This document shows, one piece after another, positions 3,537 to 16,795 of a stretch of 64,000 bases of DNA. Position 1 is the first letter of the stretch; the number at the start of each line of letters is the position of its first letter. Both the position numbers and the translations under genes were made by a program. The stretch is from Candidatus Eiseniibacteriota bacterium (GTDB lineage Bacteria; Eisenbacteria; RBG-16-71-46; CAIMUX01; VGJL01), in contig JBHGAY010000003.1 of assembly GCA_041946735.1 (NCBI GenBank), positions 128,001 to 192,000 of the forward strand. The letters run 5' to 3'. The notes below the pieces were generated by a model. It did no database searches and was not told the DNA's origin. It worked only from the letters and a program-made list of their open reading frames with translations.

Positions 3537-5534
3537 CTATACCTGCAGGTGACGGCTGCCCGGCCCGGTCAGGAACTCCAGGGGGCCGAGGTACTCGCTA
3601 CGCGGGTAGACATGGAAGCGTGCTCGGTCTTCCGCGTCCTCGTGGATCAGAATCCGCAGCCGGCCGCGCTTGAGCTTGCTCCATCGAATGCCGTCGACGG
3701 TCTCGCGAGGAAGGAGCTGGCGTGCGGCGACCGGCATCGATTCATAGTAGCGAAGCGCCCGGACGATGCTCTCCACCTTGATGACCGTCTCGATCCCTTC
3801 TTCCCGGAAGTGCGTGGCGAAGCGGCCCACGTTCTCGGGGTCGGCGCTTCCGAGCGGGACGCCGGGATCGGAGGGACGTTGGGGGTCGCGGATGAATGAC
3901 CAGGAGACCGGCGCCGTTCCCTCGATCTCCTCCATCGCGGCCGCTTTCGCCGCCGCTGCGACCGCCGCCCGCTCCCGCGCCGCGGCGCGCGCTGCCGTCG
4001 CTGCCGCCACTGCCGCCGCACGCTCCCGCTCCTCCTCCTCGGCTTCCACCTCCTCCGGCGTCTTCGGTGGAGCGGGACGCGCCGCGCCGGCGCCTCCCTC
4101 CGCGATCTGCTCGAGCGCGGCTTCCCGCATCGCGACCGCGATCTCATGGGCATGCGGGAAGACGAATTCACTGCACATCCGGCGCAGGTCGTCCTTTTGC
4201 GCATCGCTCATCTCTTCCAGCCGGATGAGGTAGCGCGCAGCCGCGTCCCGGATGCGGCCCGCGCTTGCCATGAGCGGCTCGGGACACCGGGCGGCATCGG
4301 GCGAGGAGAGATCGCCGTATGGCGCGGGGCCCGCCTCGAGGATCTCGTCGATGGGCGTCGACTCGGCGACGAGCCAGGGGGCGATCCGGCGCGCGAGGAG
4401 CGACCGCGCCCTCGCTGCTGCGGGCGGCACCGGGACGCGATGCAACTGGCGCGGTCCATGGATAAGCCGATCGACGAGCTGCGAGGCCCAGGGAGCGATC
4501 GAGCCGCGCGCGTCGATCCCTCCGGAGACGAGCAGCAGTCCGCGCAGCACGAGGAACCAGAATTCCGGCTCCCAAAGCATCGGAAGGACGATCGGTTCCC
4601 AGTCCTTTTCGTCCTTCAGCACGTCCCGTTCCACCCGATCCGGCCCCACCTGAGCGTAGCTGGCGTCGAGCTCGCGAAACCGGAGGGTCAGGAGAGTGAC
4701 CAGGAAGCGAGTGTGCGGGTCTTGGCGCTTCTCGAGGACGTCCGTGGCTTCACCGAGAAGCACCCCCGCCGTCATGCGGGCCCTCTGGTAGAACGCGATC
4801 GACTCGCGACCCGCTTTCTCGAGCCGTCGATCGAGATCGGCGAGCTTGTCCCGCTCTTCCCGCACCCGTTGAGCGAGCAGGTCCCGCGACTTGCCAGCCG
4901 GCCGGCAAAGGGAATCGAGGAGACCGAAGTCCGGCTTCCCCTCGAGATCGAGGATCTCATCGTCGTAGGGGCTCGGATGGAAGATCGCCAGGCGCCAGTC
5001 GTCCGGGTGGGTCTTGAAGTACTCGGATACGAACTGGAACATCGCCGCCTGATGCGGATGTTTTCGCATTTCGGACGTCGCCAGATCGCCGATGCTCTCG
5101 CGGACGGCGGAAGCCAACTTCTCACGAAGGATGTCCCAGAGCCCCGGCTCCTCGTAGAGCCGCGTCAACTCCTTCTTCCCTGGCAACGAGCGGAAGACGT
5201 CCCGGATCTGCTTGTACAGGTAAAGCCAACCCAGCGTCGCTTCGAGCGGATCGACACCGGCGCGCCGAGCCTCCTCGGGAAGGTCCTGGAATGTTTCGAG
5301 CGCCGCCAGACAACGCCGCGAGAGGAGCCATTCCACGGACAGCTCCTCCGTGTAGTCGACCAGCAGGCGTCCCTTGCGCATGATTTCCTGATGCTTGCGG
5401 CTCGAGTGGAAGAGCTCGACATTGCGGAGGGCGGAGAAGTAGGCATCGACGCATTCGACGACGGCGACCGGGTCCTGCTGAAGCAGGGACGGCCAGATTC
5501 GGGGAGGCGGAAATTGGAATCTGTCTTTGCGCAT
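3537..5534 (-). CDS. Hypothetical 665-aa helical protein with possible C-terminal RelE/ParE-like domain
   Basis: Long ORF with coding-like composition, 23 bp downstream of the TonB receptor gene; Ala/Glu linker, then KLKRGRLRILIHE...FHVYPRSEY. Confidence 0.7.
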   Translation of the reverse strand: MRKDRFQFPPPRIWPSLLQQDPVAVVECVDAYFSALRNVELFHSSRKHQEIMRKGRLLVDYTEELSVEWLLSRRCLAALETFQDLPEEARRAGVDPLEATLGWLYLYKQIRDVFRSLPGKKELTRLYEEPGLWDILREKLASAVRESIGDLATSEMRKHPHQAAMFQFVSEYFKTHPDDWRLAIFHPSPYDDEILDLEGKPDFGLLDSLCRPAGKSRDLLAQRVREERDKLADLDRRLEKAGRESIAFYQRARMTAGVLLGEATDVLEKRQDPHTRFLVTLLTLRFRELDASYAQVGPDRVERDVLKDEKDWEPIVLPMLWEPEFWFLVLRGLLLVSGGIDARGSIAPWASQLVDRLIHGPRQLHRVPVPPAAARARSLLARRIAPWLVAESTPIDEILEAGPAPYGDLSSPDAARCPEPLMASAGRIRDAAARYLIRLEEMSDAQKDDLRRMCSEFVFPHAHEIAVAMREAALEQIAEGGAGAARPAPPKTPEEVEAEEEERERAAAVAAATAARAAARERAAVAAAAKAAAMEEIEGTAPVSWSFIRDPQRPSDPGVPLGSADPENVGRFATHFREEGIETVIKVESIVRALRYYESMPVAARQLLPRETVDGIRWSKLKRGRLRILIHEDAEDRARFHVYPRSEYLGPLEFLTGPGSRHLQV

Positions 5535-5557: not shown

Positions 5558-7990
5558 TCAGTACCGGTACGCCACCGTCACTCCGATCCGCCTCGGCGGG
5601 CCGAGATAGGCCTGCTCGCCTCCGCGGTACTCGTAGGCGGAGATCACGTAGCGGCGGTCCAGAAGGTTCTTCGCCCAGAGGTAGACCTCGGCCGTCCTTC
5701 CGGAGATCCCGACCCTTCCGCCGACGAGCTGGCGCGCTGCGCTCCTGTAGAGATTCATATGCGACATGTAGTACGGATCGATGTACTGATAGTCGGCCGC
5801 GACGATCGCCTTGAGGTCACGCCCTAGCAGGCGCGCCGGCATCAAGTACTTCGCGGAGATCGCGGTCGTGAAGCGAGGCGTGAACTGGAGGTCGTTGCCG
5901 GCGTAGTCGTACACGACATCGATGCCGTCCTTGGTCTCGTGGAACTCGAACTCCTCGAACTTCGCCTCGAGCAACCCGAGGTTTCCGGAAAGCGTCAGTC
6001 CGGCGAGTGGAACGGCGTTCACCTCCATCTCGAGCCCCTTGCTGGTAGTCCTTCCCGCGTTCGTGATCGTCTGGAGCGGGCTCGACAGGTCGCCGACGGT
6101 CAAGACCTGCTGTTGTCGCCAGTCGATGTAGAAGGCATTCGCGTTCAGCCGGAGGGTGTTCTCGAGGAAGGACGACTTCCAGCCGACCTCGTAGTTCCAC
6201 GCGAACTCCGGGCCGTAGTACGCGATCGGCTTGTCCGTGCTGTTGAAATCGCCGCCATGCGTTCCCCGGGAAGCCGATGCGTAGACCATGTCCGTTTCGT
6301 CAAGGCGGTAGGAAAGCGCGAACCTGGGTGTCACGAAGTCGAAGTCCTTGGTCTGCTTGCGGCGGCTCACGCCGTCGAAGGGTGGCGGAGCCGGCTCTCC
6401 GTTATACAGATAGCGCGTCTCGTTGTCGATCTCGATCGTCTGTCTCTCGATGCGAGCGCCTGAGGTGAATTCGAGTCTCTCGAAGAGCGTGTACGTGCCC
6501 TGGGCGAATCCCGCCAGCCCCTGCGTCGTCAGGTCGCCGGTCGTCGCCTGGTAGATCGGCCAGATCGGCACGTGATTCGCGCGCGCCCACATCTCCCCGA
6601 GGATCGCGCTGAAATCCTGGTCCTCGAGATCGTTCGAGTAGAAGGCGCCCGCCATCCACCGGAGGCGTGAAGGCCTAGCTGGGAACTGGCATCGAACCTC
6701 CTGCGACCAGCCTCGGTAGGGCGTATTCGAGAGGAGACCGATCAAATCGAGCGGGGAGAAGTCGGCATCGTAAAGCCAGTTCATCCCTGACGTATTCTGA
6801 TAGGCGGTCGTCGACAGGAGGTCGATGCCGGCCCCCTTGTACCTTAGCTTCAACGAGGCGATCGAGTTGTGCTTGTGGATCTTCGAGTCGACGTCCGTCG
6901 CGAACCGGTACGGGTCCTCCATTGCAGCGGCCGGGTCGGTCGCGAACGGCCAGATGCTTTCCTCGATCTGCTCATTGTTGGCGAAGATCTCGGCGCTGAA
7001 GGACTCCGACGGGAAGAAGCGGAGGTCGAGGGTCCCGCCACGCCCCTTGCTCCAGCCGGCGTTCTTATCCAGGTATGTGTTGGTGTAGTAGCCGTCCCGG
7101 TTCGCATCGTAGACGGAAGCGCGAAGGAAGAGCCGGTGCCGGACCAACGGCGCGGAGACGCCGAGCGAAACCTTGGAAGCGTCGTAGTTCCCGTACTCCA
7201 TGCCCACAGAGAGTCGCGTCCGATCGCTCGGCTTCTGCGAGACGATGTTGACCACGCCGGCCAGTGAGTTCCGACCGTACAGCATGCCTTGCGGGCCTCG
7301 AACGATCTCGATGCGGTCGACGTCGTTCAAGTACATCGGATTCAGGCCGTAGCCATAGATCGGCACGCCGTCGTAGTAGAAGAGGCTCGTCGCCTCGAAC
7401 GGGGTCGCGGGCACAATCCCGCGGATGCTGACGAAGTCGGTCATGTGCGATCCAGTGTCCGCAATGATCGAGTTTGGCGAGAGGCCGGAGACGTCGGTGC
7501 GGTCGCGGATCGACAAGTCGCCGATCTTCTCCGCGGTGATCGCGCTGACAGCGACCGGAACCGTCTGCAGGTTCTGCTGGACCCTTGCTGCCGTGACGAC
7601 GATCTCCTGGAGGTTCACTGGCACGCGGTTCAAGGTGAAGTCGATTGCCAGGGTATCGGACCCCGCAGGAACCGTCATTTCCCGCCGGACCGGCTCGGCT
7701 CCGATCATTGAGACGATGACGAGATAATCCCCAGCGCGGATATTCGCGATGAAGTAGTGCCCCGATGCGTCGGTCAGAACTCCCATTGCAGTCCCATCGA
7801 GATACACCGACGCTCCCTGGGCCGGCTCTCCCTTCGAGTCCGTCACTCTGCCGCCAACCCCTGCGCCCCACGCGGGTGCCGCCGCGTACAGGACAAGGAC
7901 CAGGAGAAAAGCGGCAGTCACAGCCCGGATCAGAACGCGCACCCCAGCCCCGGTCTTGGGATCCATGGCGACTCTGAGCTTCGGCTTCAT
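5558..7990 (-). CDS. TonB-dependent receptor with N-terminal carboxypeptidase-like regulatory domain
   Basis: GRVTDSKGEP domain, EIVVTA TonB-box region, plug motif IEIVRGPQGMLYGRN, C-terminal ..PRRIGVTVAYRY; ATG overlaps the kinase stop (TGATG). Confidence 0.92.
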   Translation of the reverse strand: MKPKLRVAMDPKTGAGVRVLIRAVTAAFLLVLVLYAAAPAWGAGVGGRVTDSKGEPAQGASVYLDGTAMGVLTDASGHYFIANIRAGDYLVIVSMIGAEPVRREMTVPAGSDTLAIDFTLNRVPVNLQEIVVTAARVQQNLQTVPVAVSAITAEKIGDLSIRDRTDVSGLSPNSIIADTGSHMTDFVSIRGIVPATPFEATSLFYYDGVPIYGYGLNPMYLNDVDRIEIVRGPQGMLYGRNSLAGVVNIVSQKPSDRTRLSVGMEYGNYDASKVSLGVSAPLVRHRLFLRASVYDANRDGYYTNTYLDKNAGWSKGRGGTLDLRFFPSESFSAEIFANNEQIEESIWPFATDPAAAMEDPYRFATDVDSKIHKHNSIASLKLRYKGAGIDLLSTTAYQNTSGMNWLYDADFSPLDLIGLLSNTPYRGWSQEVRCQFPARPSRLRWMAGAFYSNDLEDQDFSAILGEMWARANHVPIWPIYQATTGDLTTQGLAGFAQGTYTLFERLEFTSGARIERQTIEIDNETRYLYNGEPAPPPFDGVSRRKQTKDFDFVTPRFALSYRLDETDMVYASASRGTHGGDFNSTDKPIAYYGPEFAWNYEVGWKSSFLENTLRLNANAFYIDWRQQQVLTVGDLSSPLQTITNAGRTTSKGLEMEVNAVPLAGLTLSGNLGLLEAKFEEFEFHETKDGIDVVYDYAGNDLQFTPRFTTAISAKYLMPARLLGRDLKAIVAADYQYIDPYYMSHMNLYRSAARQLVGGRVGISGRTAEVYLWAKNLLDRRYVISAYEYRGGEQAYLGPPRRIGVTVAYRY

Positions 7991-10900
7991 CAGCTCCTCC
8001 TCACCTGGCGATCTCCGTCTTGATCGCTCCTCCCTCCCGCCGTGCGATCGAGAGGAGCGAATCGGCAACTGCCGGCCGCGGTGAACGAGCCCTTGCTGGG
8101 TGTGATGCTGGTGTTTCCCGGCCTGTTCCCCCAGCACTTCACCTCGAATCGTCCGTCGACTCCCTCGAATCGTCCGGTCCCCTCGACCGCAGTGGAGAAC
8201 GCCCGGCTCTCGTAATGGTCTGGCGTCATCAGCGTCATCTCGCCTGTATACGCCAGCCGGATCTGCGCTCCATCCCTGGCGGTGCAGGTTCCCACGCCCT
8301 CGGAGAAGTGGCCGGTCGCCATGTTGTAGCGATGGCTTATCTCGACGGTGCACGGACCGAAGTACGTCGCGTGCCCCTCGAACCTGCCGGTCGAGATGAG
8401 CTCGTCCTCCGTCACAGGCACGCTCGAGAACGCTCCCTCCCCATACACGAACCACGGCAGGGTCAGCGAGGCGAGCCACTCCCGCCCGCGCGAAAGGAAT
8501 GCCACCGATTCGTCACGGGCTCCGATCCGCGCGAGATGATGCCCGAGAGAGATGAGCACCTGCGCCTCGAGCTGCGGATCCCCCGCGTCCTTTGAAACAT
8601 CGAGCGCCTCATCGAGCGCCGCGCGTTCGCGGTCCGGGTGCTGCAACAGGTCGAGCCGCTCCGCCTTGCGCAGCAGGATCTCGATCCGGCGGGCTCCGGA
8701 AAGGAGCCCGCGACAGCCCAAGGCCATCTCGATCAGATCGAGCGCCCTCTCGCTCGAGAAGCTCTGCTCCAGACGCCTCAGCGCGGGCTCCAGATGCGGC
8801 AAGGCTCGTTCGCCGCGCCCTCCCTTCAGGAAGTGCTCGCAGACCGCAGTCACGTCTTCGGAACCGCGGATCTCCAGCGCTTCCCCGATCGATGCGTGGT
8901 ACGCCTGTCGCAACGGTTGCGAGAGACTGCCGTAGAGCGCCTCCTGCACCTGATGGTGATCGAAGACGTAGTTCGAGCCCGAAGAGCGAACGAGCCGGTG
9001 ATGCCGCTCGATCTGCGACAACAGCTTCAGGACGGCGAGCGTGGGGAGTCCCGTCGCCTCTGCGACGAGCAACGGGTCGAACGAGAACCCGCAGCAACTC
9101 GCCGTGTCCAGCAGGTCCCGCTCCTGCTCGGAGAGGCTCGATACCCGTGCTTTCACCAGGTCGAGCACCGAGGAGGGGATCTCGATCTTCTGGATCTTCT
9201 TCGAGATCACCCAGGTGCCGTCAGGAAGCATCCTCAGGTACTGCCCCTCCCGCAGGTCCCGTACAATCTCGAACGCGAAGAACGGGTTGCCGTCCGACTT
9301 CGCCGCGATCTTGTACGCCAGCTCCTCCGCGAGCGATTCCGAGCGGAACGCGTCGACCAGCAGCCTCGTCAGGTCCTTCGGCCCGAGCCGGGAGAGGGCC
9401 ATCGACCGGGCGTGTTCGAGCCGCTCGATGCTTGCACGCCAGCTCTCCGGGACTCCTGGACGGGACGTGCCGATCAGAAGGACCCGATCCTCCGGGATGG
9501 CGAGCGCGAGCGACGCGAACATCGCGCGCCCCTCCTCGGGAGCGAAGTGCAGGTCCTCGATCAAGACCACCGTCGGCCGCTCGGCTGCGAGCGCCCGGGT
9601 CGCCTGGACGAACGCCGTCTGCATGGAGTCCTTGGTCAGCGGCTCCTTCCCCTCGGGTGTCGGCTCCCCCTTGAGGAGAGCGGCGAAGGCAGACGCCAGC
9701 GAGGGCGTGAGCGAGAGGTAGCCTCGGATCCTCTCTTCCAGCCCCTCGGATCCGAACTGCTCCCGGTAGGCCGTGGACCATGCGCCCGAAACCGTTGCCG
9801 CCCCGCCGGGCGGATAGCTGCCAAAGAGGAAGTTCAAGTCCTCGCCGGCGGAGTCCAGCTCTCCGATGAACTCGTCGATCAGCCGGGTCTTCCCGATCCC
9901 CGCCTCTCCTTCGACTAGGAGGACCTGGCCGTGGGCGGCCTTGACGTCCGCGAAGATGACGCGCAGTCGCGCGAGATCATCCTCCCGGCCATAGATCGCC
10001 GTCTCCCGCGGCATCCGGACCCGCCGGAGCGGTCGCTTTGTCTCGATCCGGATCGCCTGCGCCCGGGCGTTCCACCATTCGCTCTTGTCGCCGTCCTCGA
10101 GGACGTGGATCAAATCGGTCGCCGACGCGAAGCGATCCTCCTTGTCCTTCGCGATCAGCTTCTGTACGACCTCCTCGAAGAAAGGAGAAAGTTGCGGATT
10201 CAACTGACCGACCCGGCGCGGCGGCTCTTCGAGCACCCGTCTCAGGACGACGCGAGGATCCCCGTCTCGATATGGATGTCTTGCCGTCGAAAGCTCGTAG
10301 AGGATGATGCCGAGGGCGTAGAGGTCCGCTCGGCCGTCGATGTCCGGACCGTCCGAGCGGAACTGCTCGGGCGCGGCGTACTCAACCGTCCCGATGAAGC
10401 TCCCCGTCTGGCTGAGGCGCGCGGTCTGTTCCGTAGGCCGTGCCACTCCGAGGTCCATCACCTTGACCGCGTGGTCCGCCGTGATGAGGATGTTGTCCGG
10501 TTTCAAATCCCGATGCACGACTCCGGCGGCATGGATCGCCGCGAGCCCCCTCGCAATCTCACGGCCGAGGTGACGGCACAGTTCCTCCGGAACGCGATCC
10601 AGCTCTTGGAGGAGAGACCGCAGCGTCTGCCCCTCGACGTATTCCATCACCAGGAAGTTGAGCTGACGACCCTCGTGCACAATCGCATCGCAATCGATGC
10701 AGCGGACGACGTTGGGATGGCGGACCGACTTGCCGATCTCCGCCTCGCGCAGGAAGCGCTTGAAGAAGCCGGCCTTCTCGAGCAGGTGGGGATGGATGAT
10801 TTTCAGAGCGACAGTCGTGCCTGCGGCGAGCCCGGGCGCTTTGCCAACGACCTCGGCCCGGTAGACCTTTCCCATCCCGCCGGAGCCCAACTCATCACCG

Positions 10901-11142
10901 ATGAGGTAGGGGCCGATTCGAGCCTGCGGATTCAGGGTCCCGATGGTGTGAGTGATCTTGTCACCGGTGTCCTCCGAGCCGGAGAAGGGCTCGCTATCGA
11001 GCGCGAGGAGATCTTCGACCTCCGCCCGCAAGGAGGCGTTTGTACCGCACGCCGCGCGCAGGGCCGCGCGCCGATCCTCCTCGGGAAGATCGGCCACGCG
11101 CAGGAAGATCTCCTTCACGCGCTCGTAGTGGCCCGGGATCAC
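7990..11142 (-). CDS. Ser/Thr protein kinase + AAA/STAND ATPase + short TPR + C-terminal dirigent-like beta-barrel
   Basis: GSGGMG, ALK, HRDLKPDN, DLG and APE kinase motifs; Walker A GEAGIGKT, Walker B VLIEDLH; C-terminal EGTGRFEGVDG. Confidence 0.92.
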   Translation of the reverse strand: MIPGHYERVKEIFLRVADLPEEDRRAALRAACGTNASLRAEVEDLLALDSEPFSGSEDTGDKITHTIGTLNPQARIGPYLIGDELGSGGMGKVYRAEVVGKAPGLAAGTTVALKIIHPHLLEKAGFFKRFLREAEIGKSVRHPNVVRCIDCDAIVHEGRQLNFLVMEYVEGQTLRSLLQELDRVPEELCRHLGREIARGLAAIHAAGVVHRDLKPDNILITADHAVKVMDLGVARPTEQTARLSQTGSFIGTVEYAAPEQFRSDGPDIDGRADLYALGIILYELSTARHPYRDGDPRVVLRRVLEEPPRRVGQLNPQLSPFFEEVVQKLIAKDKEDRFASATDLIHVLEDGDKSEWWNARAQAIRIETKRPLRRVRMPRETAIYGREDDLARLRVIFADVKAAHGQVLLVEGEAGIGKTRLIDEFIGELDSAGEDLNFLFGSYPPGGAATVSGAWSTAYREQFGSEGLEERIRGYLSLTPSLASAFAALLKGEPTPEGKEPLTKDSMQTAFVQATRALAAERPTVVLIEDLHFAPEEGRAMFASLALAIPEDRVLLIGTSRPGVPESWRASIERLEHARSMALSRLGPKDLTRLLVDAFRSESLAEELAYKIAAKSDGNPFFAFEIVRDLREGQYLRMLPDGTWVISKKIQKIEIPSSVLDLVKARVSSLSEQERDLLDTASCCGFSFDPLLVAEATGLPTLAVLKLLSQIERHHRLVRSSGSNYVFDHHQVQEALYGSLSQPLRQAYHASIGEALEIRGSEDVTAVCEHFLKGGRGERALPHLEPALRRLEQSFSSERALDLIEMALGCRGLLSGARRIEILLRKAERLDLLQHPDRERAALDEALDVSKDAGDPQLEAQVLISLGHHLARIGARDESVAFLSRGREWLASLTLPWFVYGEGAFSSVPVTEDELISTGRFEGHATYFGPCTVEISHRYNMATGHFSEGVGTCTARDGAQIRLAYTGEMTLMTPDHYESRAFSTAVEGTGRFEGVDGRFEVKCWGNRPGNTSITPSKGSFTAAGSCRFAPLDRTAGGRSDQDGDRQVRRS

Positions 11143-11735
11143 GCCTGCGGCCCTCCCGGCGGTCCACGCAGCTCACGGCCAAGCCACGCGGCCGCGATCC
11201 GCCAGTCGCCACGGACCGTTCGCTCCGAGACGCCGAGGACCGTGGCGATCTCCTTCTCGCGCAGTCCGGCGAAGACCCGCATCTCGACGATCTGAGCCGC
11301 GCGTGGATCGACCTCCGCGAAGCGCGAGAGGATACGGTCCAACTCCAGGATCTCGAGTTCGGATCGCCCGCCGATCTGCACGTGCTCATCGAGCGCGATC
11401 TTCTCGCACCCCCCTCCGCGTTTCTCGGCGGCGCGGCGGCGCGCATGCTGGATCAGAACGCGCCGCATCGCCGACGCGACGATGCCGAAGAACTGCGCGC
11501 GGCTCTCCCACTCGATGGGGACGTCGCCGACCAAGCGCAGATACGCCTCGTTGACCAGGGCGGTGGGCTGGAGCGTATGGCTCTGGCGTTCGTGGCTCAT
11601 CAGGCCGACCGCGATGCGGTGCAGCTCGCGGTAGGTGGCCTGGAACAGCTTCGCGGTCGCTACGGAAGGATCCTCTTGCTCCTTCGCGATAAGGCGAAGG
11701 AGTCGCGTGACTTCGCCCTCGATGGGCTCGTCCAT
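11139..11735 (-). CDS. ECF-type RNA polymerase sigma factor (kinase-associated, TIGR02999-like)
   Basis: HTLQPTALVNEAYLRL and ASAMRRVLI..ARRR.AEKRGG motifs; region 4 HTH (EIATVLGVSERTV); GTGA overlap with the kinase start. Confidence 0.93.
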   Translation of the reverse strand: MDEPIEGEVTRLLRLIAKEQEDPSVATAKLFQATYRELHRIAVGLMSHERQSHTLQPTALVNEAYLRLVGDVPIEWESRAQFFGIVASAMRRVLIQHARRRAAEKRGGGCEKIALDEHVQIGGRSELEILELDRILSRFAEVDPRAAQIVEMRVFAGLREKEIATVLGVSERTVRGDWRIAAAWLGRELRGPPGGPQA

Positions 11736-12073
11736 GCGCCACCCCCGGAGTGAAGCGGCATGCCGGGCACAGGCACGCGCAGACCGTAGCTACTTTGCGG
11801 CAAATACGGTACGGCCCCGGGAAGCGTCCTGCAACCGGAGAATGGCGGTCCGGGAGAATCGCAGCTGGCGATGACGAAAGGCCGGCGGGACGGCAGCCCG
11901 GGTCGGGACGCTTGCGCCTCGACGGGCTTTTTGCCGGTTTCGGACGCGGAATGCACACATAGGGGAGCAGTCCCGGCGGTTCGAGAGGATGCGTCACGAA
12001 TCCCGGACGCGAGGGGGGCCGGCCCGGACCGGCGCCCGTATGCCAAACGGATGACTCAAGAAGGGGGACAGAA

Positions 12074-12628
12074 ATGAACATTCTCATCTCCGCCCTGATG
12101 GCCGTTCTGCTGGGCTTCACCGGAAGCTCCGCCGACCCCGGTGCGGTCAGCACGTCGCCCGACAGGAGCGACCAGGACACGATGTTCCGAGAACCGGTGG
12201 GTGGGTATTTCCATGGCAGAATCGACGGGATCGCAGTGACCGTGGGCTATTGCGTACCGGATCAGGTACTGGACATCGACTTCGACGGCGTCGGCGTCGT
12301 CTCCTTCCTCGGGCGCTGCACGATGAGCGCAAACAACTGCTCGGACTGGACCGATCCCGAGCTGCCTTTCGAGGGCGGCATTGAGGGTGACGGCACGGTG
12401 GTCGCAGCCAACGGGGATGAGCTCTACATGACGGTAGCCGGCAGGTACTACGTCGGTAGCTTGCCGCCGACCACGATGACGATCACCGGCACGTACACCG
12501 TCACGGGCGGCACGGGCAGATTCTCCGATGCAACCGGCTCCGGGCAGATCTACGGAGAGCAGGAACTCTTGGATCTATACGGTCATCACGAGACCTGGTT
12601 CAGCTTCGACGGGACTTTCCGTCCTTAG
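12074..12628 (+). CDS. Secreted dirigent/allene-oxide-cyclase-like beta-barrel protein
   Basis: Signal peptide; beta-strand-rich; ANGDELY and TGGTGRFSDATG motifs. Confidence 0.75.
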   Translation: MNILISALMAVLLGFTGSSADPGAVSTSPDRSDQDTMFREPVGGYFHGRIDGIAVTVGYCVPDQVLDIDFDGVGVVSFLGRCTMSANNCSDWTDPELPFEGGIEGDGTVVAANGDELYMTVAGRYYVGSLPPTTMTITGTYTVTGGTGRFSDATGSGQIYGEQELLDLYGHHETWFSFDGTFRP

Positions 12629-12735
12629 GCGAAGCGAAGAGACGCTGGGAGCCGGCAACTGTCGTCCGGCTCCCAGTTGGATGGAAAGCCTGTTGGCGCT
12701 CGGGGCTCGGCCCCGAGATCTGAAGGAGGAATCCC

Positions 12736-13221
12736 ATGACAGGGCGGGCCATGTTCTTCGGACTTCTCGTGGCGCTGGTCGCCGCGCTCGCTCCGATCAC
12801 AGCGCAGTCGCAGGAGATGGTCTACTTCAAGGGGCACGCAGAGGGGACGATCGATCACGCGCCAAGCGTCGCCTGCGGGACCGGGTTCCTCGAGGCGACC
12901 ACGCAGGCCTCGGGGAACGTTAGCCACATGGGTCGCGTCGACATCGAGGGCCTCCACTGCCTGAACCCGAGCAGCGGCGAGGTGAGCAATGGCGATTTCA
13001 CGATCGCCACCAAGGGTGGAGACATGCTGTACGCCACCTACACCGGGCAGGCTTTCCCAGACCAGACGGTCCGTCTGGAAGGAACGTGGACCGGCGGCAC
13101 GGGACGTTTTGCCGGGGCAACCGGGCAGTTCGTCGTGACCGCGACCAAGACGGTCGGCGACATCTGGCACTCCCAGATCGTCATGGATGCGGTCGGGACG
13201 GTGACGATCATCGACGACTGA
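12736..13221 (+). CDS. Secreted dirigent/allene-oxide-cyclase-like beta-barrel protein (paralog)
   Basis: GGAGG RBS; signal peptide; GGDMLY and TGGTGRFAGATG motifs. Confidence 0.78.
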   Translation: MTGRAMFFGLLVALVAALAPITAQSQEMVYFKGHAEGTIDHAPSVACGTGFLEATTQASGNVSHMGRVDIEGLHCLNPSSGEVSNGDFTIATKGGDMLYATYTGQAFPDQTVRLEGTWTGGTGRFAGATGQFVVTATKTVGDIWHSQIVMDAVGTVTIIDD

Positions 13222-13526
13222 TCACATGGGGAGAAGGCGGGCGCCCATCTCCCATTTCACGGAGCCAGCCCGCACCCCGGGCCTCCCGTCCATCTCACAT
13301 CGGACGGGAGGCTCGGTCCGTGAAAGTGGAGGACGCGTTCCCGGGAGAGGAATTTCGAGTAGAATGGGTGCGCCCGCAAGCGGGTGGCGGGGACGCGGCC
13401 GAAGCTCGGCATCCGTGCCGGCGCCGTCCCTGCCGGATCGATCCGGTTCGGGAGAACGGCCGCTTCCCGCTCGACAAACCGCTCGAAAGACTGCCGTTCC
13501 GTCCCGGATCAGGAAAGGGCCCCGAT

Positions 13527-14479: not shown

Positions 14480-15511
14480 ATGAGATGGACGAGTGAGCAT
14501 GATCGGCGTACGCTTCCCGCCGGCATGGAATCGATCCCGAATGTTTCGGCCGCGAGTCGCGCAAATCCGGATGCGGCGGGAATCACCGTTGAGGGCTTGA
14601 CCAAGACCTACCGTTCGGGAAAGGTGCGAGCGCTGGACGCGGTGTCGCTGCGCGTGCGTCCCGGAGAGGTCCTCGGGGTGATCGGCCCCAACGGCGCCGG
14701 CAAGACGACGCTCATGGGCTGCATGCTCGGCTTCTTGCGCCCAGACGCGGGAACCGTGGCGATCGATGGACACCCGCCTGACGACCTCTCCGTCCGTGGT
14801 GCCACGGGCTATCTGCCCGAGAGGCTCACGCTCGACCGCTGGATGACCGGTCTCGGCTACCTTCGCTATCAGCACGCGCTCGCGCGTCTGCCGGCGGAGA
14901 CGCGGGATCAGGACGCGCGTGCCTGGCTGGCTAGGGTCGGACTCGATCCGGCTGCCGGCGACCGGACGGTCCGCAGGTACTCGCAGGGGATGCTGCAACG
15001 CCTCGGCCTCGCGCAGGCGCTCCTCGGCTGCCCGCGATTCCTCTTCCTGGACGAGCCGACCTCCGGCATGGACCCGGAGGGCGTCGTCCTGTTCCGGCGG
15101 ATCGTGGGAGATCTCAAGGGCTCCGGTGTCACGGTGATCCTGAACTCGCACCAACTCGATCAGGTGGAGCGCGTCTGCGATCGCGTCGCCTTCGTTCAGC
15201 GGGGGAAGGTGGAATCGATCGACACCCTGACGGCGGGGGCTCAGCTTGAGCGTCTCCTGCGCGTGCGATTCGCCGCCGGGTCGTTCCCATCTTCCGACGC
15301 CCTGGCGCGGTGCGCGCGGGAATCGGGCGCGGAGCTGGTCGAGGTCGCACCCGGCGAAGGTCGATTCCAGGTCTCCGGCGACGAGGGCGCGGTGAGGCTC
15401 CTGCGCGCGCTCGTCGGAGCGGGACTGGCGGTCGTGGAAGCGAACGCCGACCAGGGCCGGCTCGAACGGCTTTTCACGGCTGCGGCTCCGCCGGCCGGAG
15501 ACGCGCGATGA
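14480..15511 (+). CDS. ABC transporter ATP-binding protein (ABC-2/drug exporter type)
   Basis: GPNGAGKTT, YSQGM signature, FLDEPT, SH switch; exact start uncertain. Confidence 0.92.
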   Translation: MRWTSEHDRRTLPAGMESIPNVSAASRANPDAAGITVEGLTKTYRSGKVRALDAVSLRVRPGEVLGVIGPNGAGKTTLMGCMLGFLRPDAGTVAIDGHPPDDLSVRGATGYLPERLTLDRWMTGLGYLRYQHALARLPAETRDQDARAWLARVGLDPAAGDRTVRRYSQGMLQRLGLAQALLGCPRFLFLDEPTSGMDPEGVVLFRRIVGDLKGSGVTVILNSHQLDQVERVCDRVAFVQRGKVESIDTLTAGAQLERLLRVRFAAGSFPSSDALARCARESGAELVEVAPGEGRFQVSGDEGAVRLLRALVGAGLAVVEANADQGRLERLFTAAAPPAGDAR

Positions 15512-16209
15512 ACGGGACGCTCATCACAGCCTTCCTTCGCCAGCGCCTGCATAGCCGCGTCCGCATGGCCTTGGCCATCTTCTTCTTCGCGACGAAGCCG
15601 CTCATCGCCGCAATCGCGCCCCGCATCGGGTTCGATCCATTCGACTGGGCCTTCGCCCTGATCGTCGGCGCGGGCATGATCGGGCAGGACGTGGCATCGG
15701 GCGTTCTCGCGGGGATCCTCGCTCGTCCGGTCCGGCGCTCCGAGTACGTGCTGAGCCGCGGCGCGGCGACGGCGATCGGCGCCGGGCTCCTCTGTCTGGC
15801 GCATTGCGCTGCCGGTTTCGCGGCGCTGGCCCTGCGTGGGGCCCCGGTCGACCTGGCCATGGCCGCTTCGCGAACGGCCGCCGCGCTCTTCACCGTCATC
15901 GGCGCCTCCGCCGTCCTGCTCTTCTTCTCCAGCGCCATGAACGCGCTCGGCGACCTCGCGGTCTACCTCATCGCTTTCCTGCTGACCCAGGTCGTGCAGA
16001 CGGTCGGGTCGATGCAGTCGATCGGCTGGCTCCAGCGGACCGGCCTCGAGCTCGGGGGATTCGTCCAACCCATCCTCTACCCCGCGCAGATCGCCGGCCC
16101 GGCGGCGTCGCCGTTCGCGGTCGTCTCGTACCTGTCGACGATCACCCTCTGCATCGTGCTCGCGATCCTCCTCACGAATCGGAAGGAGCTGTCCTATGCC
16201 GCCTCGTGA
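15508..16209 (+). CDS. ABC-2 transporter permease
   Basis: About 6 hydrophobic segments, LARPVRRSEY motif, ATGA overlap with the ATPase gene. Confidence 0.85.
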   Translation: MNGTLITAFLRQRLHSRVRMALAIFFFATKPLIAAIAPRIGFDPFDWAFALIVGAGMIGQDVASGVLAGILARPVRRSEYVLSRGAATAIGAGLLCLAHCAAGFAALALRGAPVDLAMAASRTAAALFTVIGASAVLLFFSSAMNALGDLAVYLIAFLLTQVVQTVGSMQSIGWLQRTGLELGGFVQPILYPAQIAGPAASPFAVVSYLSTITLCIVLAILLTNRKELSYAAS

Positions 16210-16795
16210 GACGAAGGCCAGCGGGTCGGGAGCAAAGGAAGAGTCGAGCGGCCGCGTAACAGTGCGCGGCTCGACGCGCGCGACGCCGCGCTGGCTTTTC
16301 GTGCTCGCGGCGGTCCTCCTGATCGCCCGCGTGGCGACAGGGATCCAGGAGCACGCCCAGGCGCGCCCACCAGTCGACCGAGTCGCGTGGGTTCCCATGG
16401 AGCAGGCGGAGGCGCAGGCACAATCCACCGGGAAGGCGATCCTCTACGACTTCTCGGCTGCGTCGTCTCGGCCGTGCCGCAGGATGGCGAGGGAGGTCTT
16501 CACCGACTCGACGATGGCGAGAATCATTTCCACGCAGTATGTGCCGGTGCAGGTCATCGATCGCTCACGTGAAGACGGACGGAATTCCGCGGCCATCGAC
16601 TCTCTGCAAGCCGTCTACCGCGTGCGCTCCTTCCCCACGCTGGTCGTGTTTCACCCGCAGACCGGCGAGCACGAAACCGCCGAGGGCTACGAGAGCCGGG
16701 GCAAGACGGCGCGGTTCCTGCAGGATCCGGCCGGCAAGCTCCACATCCGTCCGTTCCTGCCACAAGGGACGCCCCCGGCGGACTCGGGCCGGTGA
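16196..16795 (+). CDS. Membrane-anchored thioredoxin-like protein (SxxC variant)
   Basis: TM helix, then GKAILYDFSAASSRPCRRM and YRVRSFPTLV (cis-Pro loop). Confidence 0.8.
   Translation: MPPRETKASGSGAKEESSGRVTVRGSTRATPRWLFVLAAVLLIARVATGIQEHAQARPPVDRVAWVPMEQAEAQAQSTGKAILYDFSAASSRPCRRMAREVFTDSTMARIISTQYVPVQVIDRSREDGRNSAAIDSLQAVYRVRSFPTLVVFHPQTGEHETAEGYESRGKTARFLQDPAGKLHIRPFLPQGTPPADSGR

Follow-up and report, generated by a model that had tools for sequence, protein, structure and literature searches.

A kinase with a barrel domain resembling its divergently encoded secreted neighbours at an ECF43 sigma factor locus of a Candidatus Eiseniibacteriota bacterium

We analysed a gene cluster centred on a protein kinase in a 64-kb stretch of a metagenome-assembled genome (72 contigs) of a Candidatus Eiseniibacteriota bacterium (GCA_041946735.1, JBHGAY010000003.1:128,001-192,000); the whole stretch is referred to as the window, and coordinates are positions within it. 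Four closely spaced frames on the minus strand encode an extracytoplasmic function (ECF) sigma factor, the kinase, a TonB-dependent receptor and a putative protein of 665 amino acids (aa), and two small genes, barrel 1 and barrel 2, lie divergent from this sigma operon on the plus strand. The module of an ECF43 sigma factor and a Hanks-type kinase is of a known kind; what is new here is that the tetratricopeptide repeat (TPR) tail of the kinase appears to have been exchanged for a homolog of the co-encoded secreted proteins. The kinase is denoted P0001, the products of barrel 1 and barrel 2 are P0002 and P0003, and the kinase ortholog in the related genome G005 is P0046. The locus comprises the following features.

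11139..11735, minus strand: ECF sigma factor of the ECF43 type, 198 aa (PF07638 and TIGR02999 matches)
7990..11142, minus strand: Hanks-type Ser/Thr kinase with a signal transduction NTPase of the STAND class and a C-terminal barrel, 1050 aa (Pfam domains)
11002..11130, minus strand: N-terminal motif of the kinase, about 45 aa, residues ~5-47 (common to sigma-adjacent kinases)
8461..8506, minus strand: kinase junction, residues ~880-894, from the last TPR-like helix to the first barrel strand (limits of similarity)
8074..8460, minus strand: predicted barrel domain of the kinase, residues ~895-1023, without a signal peptide (BLASTP, profile, model)
7993..8073, minus strand: 27-residue kinase tail, from the last barrel strand to the stop codon overlapping the receptor start (drop in GC content at third codon positions, GC3)
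5558..7990, minus strand: TonB-dependent receptor, 810 aa, with an N-terminal CarboxypepD_reg domain (Pfam Plug, TonB_dep_Rec_b-barrel, CarboxypepD_reg)
3537..5534, minus strand: 665-aa frame, possibly the last operon gene (open frame 23 nucleotides (nt) past the receptor stop)
11810..11838, minus strand: promoter-like site CCGGTTGC-N17-CGTA facing the sigma operon (pattern match; block conserved in G005)
11934..11961, plus strand: promoter-like site CCGGTTTC-N16-CATA facing barrel 1 (pattern match; exact G005 counterpart)
12074..12628, plus strand: secreted barrel protein 1, 184 aa, signal peptide (BLASTP to P0003, G005 ortholog)
12736..13221, plus strand: secreted barrel protein 2, 161 aa, signal peptide (41 homologs, AlphaFold2 model)

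An earlier, sequence-only reading of this DNA had claimed that the last ~140 aa of the kinase resemble both secreted proteins, and our comparisons bear this out. In BLASTP searches, kinase residues 915-1001 matched P0003 residues 52-134 with 32% identity (E 4e-8) and P0002 matched P0003 at E 1e-10; the comparison of the kinase with P0002 alone was not significant (E 3.4). Against a profile made from the remaining 50 family sequences (leave-one-out), the kinase copy of the barrel reached 69.9 bits, and none of the 7 columns that are invariant in an alignment of 45 family sequences is altered in it. In a large protein collection, P0003 has 41 homologs, 135-267 aa long, all of them small proteins, nearly all beginning with a signal peptide, and with the blocks G.ATHLG, FTAANGD and GGTGRFAGATG in common; members of the family end soon past the last strand. 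The genome carries three barrel copies only, all at this locus. Judging from the alignments, homology to the secreted proteins encoded at 12074 and 12736 extends over kinase residues ~895-1023. The peptide RSDQD, common to the kinase tail and barrel 1, was taken as a chance similarity, with only 8 identical bases.

The nearest genome with the locus, G005, belongs to a different genus of the same family. Its locus encodes a sigma factor, a kinase-less STAND protein beside it, orthologs of both secreted barrels and, beyond the barrels, the full kinase P0046. Residues 75-879 of P0001 align with residues 95-899 of P0046 without a gap (71% identity over 805 residues). From this point P0046 continues with ~510 aa of TPR repeats, whereas P0001, in which similarity to P0046 stops at residue 879, enters barrel-family similarity at ~895, after a gap of ~15 residues. 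No TPR family passes for P0001 in Pfam, and only a stub, aligning with the first TPR of P0046, is left. By this comparison the barrel replaces the TPR tail and the array is reduced to a stub, as the earlier reading had held in placing the barrel where most of the TPR tail would be. Thus, relative to STAND kinases with TPR tails (Pkinase-AAA_16-TPR, such as P0046), the window kinase shares the kinase and NTPase parts but carries a ~130-aa barrel where the ~510-aa array would be. A tblastn search with P0046 and P0047 (the kinase and STAND proteins of G005) matched the window only at 8506-11808, the kinase-sigma region; therefore, no remnant of a second kinase is present downstream of barrel 2.

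Of the two G005 proteins, the STAND protein (L009 8511-10955, minus strand) keeps the N-terminal motif and AAA_16, whereas its TPR tail and the greater part of its kinase domain are gone; the intact kinase, past both barrel genes (L009 12338-16570, plus strand), is without the N-terminal motif. The window kinase unites the N-terminal motif and an intact kinase, features that are split between these two proteins.

The fusion of kinase and barrel is not an assembly error. The ~15-residue gap is too short to accommodate a stop codon, ribosome site and start codon together with a signal peptide of ~25 residues. The TPR-stub and barrel blocks lie in one frame, which is open over the ~130 codons of the barrel, and the barrel GC3 in this frame is 0.829, with 0.80-0.85 in the surrounding genes. 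Furthermore, an identical 151-nt contig from a different study (run X7) covers 8393-8543 across the junction, and contigs of three further runs cover the barrel part without difference. The contig, the short gap and the single frame argue strongly against the assembly chimera that the earlier reading had named as refuting its proposal. The simplest origin of the fusion would be a deletion that begins within the TPR array, stops where the signal peptide of the barrel ends and thereby joins the kinase to the barrel gene downstream, because the gene order kinase-then-barrel recurs in other phyla. The earlier statement that the kinase acquired a copy of the barrel stands insofar as an extra copy is fused to it; the event itself would be explained more simply by a deletion onto an adjacent gene.

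Predicted structures place the barrels more closely. AlphaFold2 models of the kinase barrel and of P0003 (predicted local distance difference test, pLDDT, 87.6 and 96.5, respectively) are both eight-stranded barrels, with a mutual likeness that is partly by construction, both having been built from one family alignment. Among solved structures, the two models matched PloI4 (Z 12.3-12.7, P0003 at 12.7), the pyocyanin demethylase PodA (Z 12.3-12.4; kinase barrel 12.4, P0003 12.3), allene oxide cyclase (AOC; Z 11.2-11.7; kinase barrel 11.7, P0003 11.2), the dirigent protein AtDIR6 (Z 11.1-11.5; kinase barrel 11.5, P0003 11.1) and DUF3224 (Z 11.3-11.6), with root-mean-square deviations of 2.3-3.6 over 111-123 aligned residues and 8-17% identity. 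The best natural Foldseek matches were dirigent proteins (6ooc, TM 0.60, E 8e-3). The fold match alone is nonspecific, eight-stranded outer-membrane barrels scoring almost equally in the fold search. At the sequence level, P0002, P0003 and the kinase tail reached no Pfam family at E 0.1, including PF03018, PF06351 and PF18678; among the 45 family members, 16 matched Dirigent (best E 1.9e-4), 7 AOC_like and 2 AOC, and one tandem-barrel relative has precomputed matches to both Dirigent and AOC-type families. A profile search of PDB sequences reached the dirigent domain and AOC at E ~0.02, the glycine-rich GTGRF turn aligns with the dirigent GGTGQF, and the likeness to PodA consists of the fold match plus a 29-residue profile match at E 0.22. 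Because these sequence links are weak but consistent and the three window copies lack a Pfam match, we assign the window barrels, on the strength of the models, to a distant unnamed branch of the AOC/dirigent/PodA/DUF3224 fold class, outside those Pfam families. The dirigent/AOC-like barrel that the earlier reading had predicted from GGTGxF is thus recovered in the models of the kinase and P0003. With the known members of the class, bacterial Diels-Alderase barrels among them, the window copies have in common the eight-stranded barrel (Z 11-12.7) and the GTGRF turn; they differ in sequence to the extent given above, the comparison being one of fold.

The sigma, kinase and receptor genes are coupled by overlapping stop and start codons, as the earlier reading had noted: sigma stop and kinase start overlap as GTGA, and the kinase stop has one base in common with the receptor start (TGATG), which is preceded by a GGAGGAG ribosome site. 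The 665-aa frame may be the final gene of the operon; searches of Pfam and NCBIfam gave no passing family for it, no signal peptide was found, and its Atlas model is poor (pLDDT 0.48). By hydropathy, N-terminal hydrophobic signal segments are present in both free barrels and in the TonB receptor.

The sigma factor matches PF07638 at E 2.1e-51 over residues 8-190 in a Pfam search and TIGR02999 at E 1.6e-57 in an NCBIfam search (194.3 bits, cut-off 126.15). According to a published account, ECF43 factors have the DxxD of sigma-2.2 replaced by uncharged residues with a conserved phospho-Thr, QTTA, and their hallmark is a co-encoded Hanks-type kinase (PMC13147305). The window sigma reads HTLQPTALVNE, with Thr58 (codon 11562-11564) within QPTA, a motif matched to the published QTTA by eye, without alignment to EcfK or EcfP. 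On these similarities the protein is classed as an ECF43-type factor, with Thr58 at the predicted place of the EcfK/EcfP phospho-threonine; the earlier reading had singled out the same Thr in LQPTAL. The systems described in the same account, EcfK/PknS of Xanthomonas citri and EcfP/PknT of Vibrio parahaemolyticus, likewise consist of an ECF sigma factor without an anti-sigma factor beside a Hanks kinase, and likewise have an uncharged sigma-2.2 motif with a conserved Thr, QTTA there and QPTA in the window (PMC13147305). PknS is described as a transmembrane receptor kinase (PMC13147305), whereas the window kinase appears to be soluble, contains a STAND NTPase and has a terminal barrel in place of repeats.

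In the kinase, Pfam places Pkinase at residues 81-342 (E 1e-45) and AAA_16 at 383-557 (E 1.1e-15). Because the motifs GSGGMGKVY, VALK, HRDLKPDN, DLG, APE (AAPE) and GEAGIGKT are present and the alignment with P0046 is gapless at the identity given above, the kinase and NTPase parts look intact. No transmembrane helix was found in it, the best 19-residue Kyte-Doolittle mean being 1.52 against a cut-off of 1.6, in agreement with the earlier reading. Ahead of the kinase domain lies a motif, ...F..V..LPEEDR.AALRAAC.....LRAEVEDLL, that across loci has the consensus F..AL.L....R.AFLD.AC..D..LR..VE.LL. This motif is present in all 10 inspected kinases adjoining a PF07638-type sigma factor (the window, L019, L025, L041, L052, L055, L063, L070, L071 and L075) and additionally in L013, and is missing from all three barrel-neighbouring kinases without an adjacent sigma factor. 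The ~45-residue element may serve in docking to the sigma factor.

The spacer between the sigma gene and barrel 1 contains a pair of promoter-like sites. In the alignment of this spacer with its G005 counterpart, the best conserved block is TTGCCGGTTTCGG, identical in both genomes and facing barrel 1, followed 16 nt on by CA(C)A/GTA; in the other direction, the sigma-facing block CCGGTTGC is followed 16-17 nt on by a GTAC-containing block, CGTAC in the window and GGTAC in G005. The pattern CCGGTTKC-N15-18-CRTA has 2 matches in the 64-kb window against 0.05 expected, both in this spacer and divergent, and 1 match in the 20-kb G005 locus, at the homologous place (L009 10995-11022, the site on the barrel-1 side). 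This divergent pair fits one sigma factor that would drive both arms, autoregulating its operon and controlling barrel 1. No site of this kind lies ahead of barrel 2, which is preceded by a 32-nt hairpin at 12645-12676. The control of the divergent genes by the ECF factor, as proposed by the earlier reading, would fit the site found for barrel 1. No sigma-70-type promoter was found in 11600-13400. The hairpin (plus strand), in the spacer between the two barrel genes, has a perfect 12-bp stem of the CTGGGAGCCGGC...GCCGGCTCCCAG type with no T-run after it, and was not picked up as a terminator.

We further examined the neighbourhood of free barrels in 80 loci taken from GTDB species genomes, with up to 8 kb of flank. 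Within 8 kb, a PF07638-like sigma factor is present in 15 of the 80 loci and a kinase domain in 25; in 9 of the 15 sigma loci the sigma gene lies no more than 500 nt from the barrel, with up to 8 kb of flank available. The control on these neighbourhood counts is one of distance within the locus only. In 18 of the 80 loci the barrel gene has a sigma or kinase gene as its immediate neighbour. Several gene orders are seen: sigma-kinase divergent from the barrel (L010, L021, L025, L028, L041, L055, L063); kinase or sigma-kinase followed by the barrel (L013, L019, L023, L024, L047, L070); kinase divergent from the barrel with no sigma gene between (L071 and L073, which share the same coordinates and are perhaps not independent); barrel followed directly by a kinase (L065); and barrel followed by a sigma gene (L075, L079). 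The barrel loci belong to Acidobacteriota, Planctomycetota, Gemmatimonadota, Verrucomicrobiota, Actinomycetota and Eisenbacteria. Of 20 kinases encoded beside a barrel, 17 have a hydrophobic segment after the kinase domain, so that the sensor part and the free barrel share a compartment in most phyla; the C-terminal parts of these kinases contain WD40, PD40, TPR or periplasmic-binding domains. The sigma-kinase-barrel neighbourhood is a more robust and more general result than the fusion.

No second fusion of kinase and barrel was found in any of the collections searched. When kinase residues 885-1025 were compared with 5.8 billion protein clusters in a word-indexed search limited to proteins of 577-1838 aa, none of the 303 candidates reached E 0.01; here the kinase's own cluster is represented by an 813-aa fragment that ends before the junction, so that the query itself could not appear, and proteins of 283-468 aa fell outside the word-indexed searches. 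A phmmer search with the barrel against 1.84 billion representatives yielded 9 matches of 120-542 aa with no kinase, and a profile search among proteins of 469-2000 aa likewise yielded 9 matches with no kinase, these being tandem barrels and fusions to FG-GAP/VCBS or PQQ propellers. The 80 barrel loci contained no kinase-barrel fusion; two long barrel-containing frames, in L055 and L063, proved to be spurious frames antisense to the sigma gene. Among 60 related genomes there were three weak matches, of which G005 alone is syntenic, and no fusion; a 1201-aa frame in G039 was rejected as a candidate, being a secreted repeat protein and not a kinase. In Joint Genome Institute (JGI) metagenome contigs, a junction-plus-barrel query gave 50 pattern matches and 0 relatives, and kinase residues 701-879 found 18 relatives (41-66% identity), with a barrel at E 10 in none of the 25 loci L090-L114. 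The architecture is thus without a known counterpart in these collections, as the earlier reading had supposed, and no paper on a dirigent/AOC-barrel together with an ECF sigma/kinase module was found in the PubMed Central open subset and bioRxiv, as judged from listings.

The explanation that we favour as a whole, tentatively and at a probability somewhat short of even, combines an ECF43 module, a STAND kinase, a barrel that would have been gained by deletion as an input domain, and divergent arms driven by the sigma factor. In this account, the Hanks kinase would phosphorylate the ECF43 sigma factor and thereby switch it on. The deletion would have joined the kinase to a barrel gene just downstream, taking out the remaining TPR array along with the stop codon, spacer and signal peptide, and the barrel would now sit where a STAND protein has its signal-input domain. 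Binding of a small molecule, probably hydrophobic or aromatic, within the barrel would release the NTPase-kinase, which would then phosphorylate Thr58 of the sigma factor. The sigma factor would transcribe two arms from the divergent CCGGTT(T/G)C...C(A/G)TA sites, one being its own operon (sigma, kinase, TonB receptor and the 665-aa frame) and the other barrel 1, together with barrel 2 by read-through or from a promoter of its own; the module would have the secreted barrels as its output. The scheme of the earlier reading, in which an intracellular ligand sensor switches on a TonB importer and periplasmic binders for that same ligand, could be a reasonable model.

Several observations weigh against this account. 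The fusion was found in one species only, a singleton across all searches, and its conservation cannot be demonstrated. The kinase copy is the most divergent of the 51 family members (69.9 bits, the next-lowest scoring 85.3) and departs from the consensus at nearly invariant positions (THLG to TYFG, AANGD to ARDGA, GGTGRFAGATG to EGTGRFEGVDG), a divergence that fits relaxed constraint as well as a new function. The barrel family otherwise acts outside the cytoplasm, as its signal peptides indicate. The 27-residue tail has a GC3 of 0.593 against 0.80-0.85 in the surrounding genes and looks like former spacer DNA read through to the receptor start codon. With regard to the promoter-like sites, the pattern has 8 matches genome-wide against 3 for a control pattern, and it was derived from the same sequences in which it was counted, so that the counts are illustrative and the conservation across genera is the independent part. 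Finally, the TonB receptor, counted as part of the module by the earlier reading, is not a conserved partner: a single weak TonB-like match was found in the 80 barrel loci, and of the frames annotated at the G005 locus none was recognised as a TonB-dependent receptor, which leaves a local link only.

An explanation that we regard as nearly as likely as the sensor model, and as a serious rival, is that the fusion is a by-product of the deletion. The deletion would then have left a shortened kinase attached to the portion of a downstream secreted-barrel gene that encodes the mature protein, and the barrel, now cytoplasmic, would sense nothing. Deprived of its autoinhibitory TPR array, the kinase would be constitutively active or otherwise regulated, and the secreted barrels would still be output of the sigma factor. 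Besides the singleton status of the fusion, the low score and altered positions of the kinase copy, and the non-coding-type GC3 of the tail, as if an old stop codon had been lost, this explanation draws on the enabling order of kinase and barrel in the six loci listed above and on the paralogous STAND kinase, with a 1556-aa open frame, that could back up the function. It has to accommodate, however, a barrel frame that is open for ~130 codons with normal GC3, the retention of all 7 invariant family positions, a kinase barrel that is modelled confidently, and a junction exactly at the start of the mature domain. The paralog, the one other STAND kinase of this kind in the genome (G000:C15:2722-4275), is 48% identical to the window kinase in the NTPase part.

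It is unlikely that the barrel, instead of sensing a small molecule, is a protein-protein module through which the kinase would oligomerise or bind unexported precursors of its secreted paralogs as a form of feedback. AOC, dirigent proteins and PodA, which belong to the same fold class, are trimers, and the extra-membrane sensor part in 17 of 20 barrel-neighbouring kinases, located in the compartment of the free barrels, would make contact between barrel and kinase possible in other phyla; in the window, however, the kinase is predicted to be cytoplasmic and the paralogs to be exported. Least probable by far is an artefact in which an assembly chimera or a sequencing indel merged two genes: the metagenomic origin of the genome, in 72 contigs, and the fact that the sole near-identical recorded protein is a fragment, breaking off with its contig at residue 812, ahead of the junction, are outweighed by the independent contigs over the junction and barrel, the tight spacing and the common frame.

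Returning to the sensor model, a broader form of it, which we consider doubtful, is that the barrel is the ligand-recognition element of a widespread ECF43 sigma/Hanks kinase/barrel module, acting in trans outside the membrane alongside receptor kinases in most phyla and captured here in cis to serve a soluble STAND kinase as its input domain. Were this the case, the fusion would be a natural 'Rosetta stone' by which barrel and kinase are seen to act on the same signal. A receptor that uses a domain homologous to the effector proteins controlled by its pathway is known in BlaR1/MecR1, the same principle as would apply to the window kinase; those systems differ in having an unrelated fold, an extracellular sensor, and proteolysis rather than a kinase and a sigma factor. 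To our knowledge, only two cases of phosphorylation-activated sigma factors have been studied, and the signals of their kinases are mostly unknown. At the present locus the kinase appears to be soluble, and its presumed input domain, a small and well-folded barrel, lends itself to expression and ligand screening; beside it are two secreted paralogs under the same presumed promoter. The occurrence of the barrel family beside sigma/kinase pairs in six phyla hints at a frequent, so far undescribed output or co-sensor of these pathways among soil bacteria. Should the fusion be a mere by-product of deletion, the module would still stand and the fusion would be a curiosity.

Barrels of this family also occur in secreted tandem arrays of two, three or more copies and in fusions to FG-GAP/VCBS and PQQ-propeller proteins (P0059-P0067, P0051, P0052, P0056). 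In the window, beyond barrel 2 and two further frames without a recognised family, there are an ABC ATPase, a weak match to an ABC-2 permease and a thioredoxin-like protein (14480-16795, plus strand).

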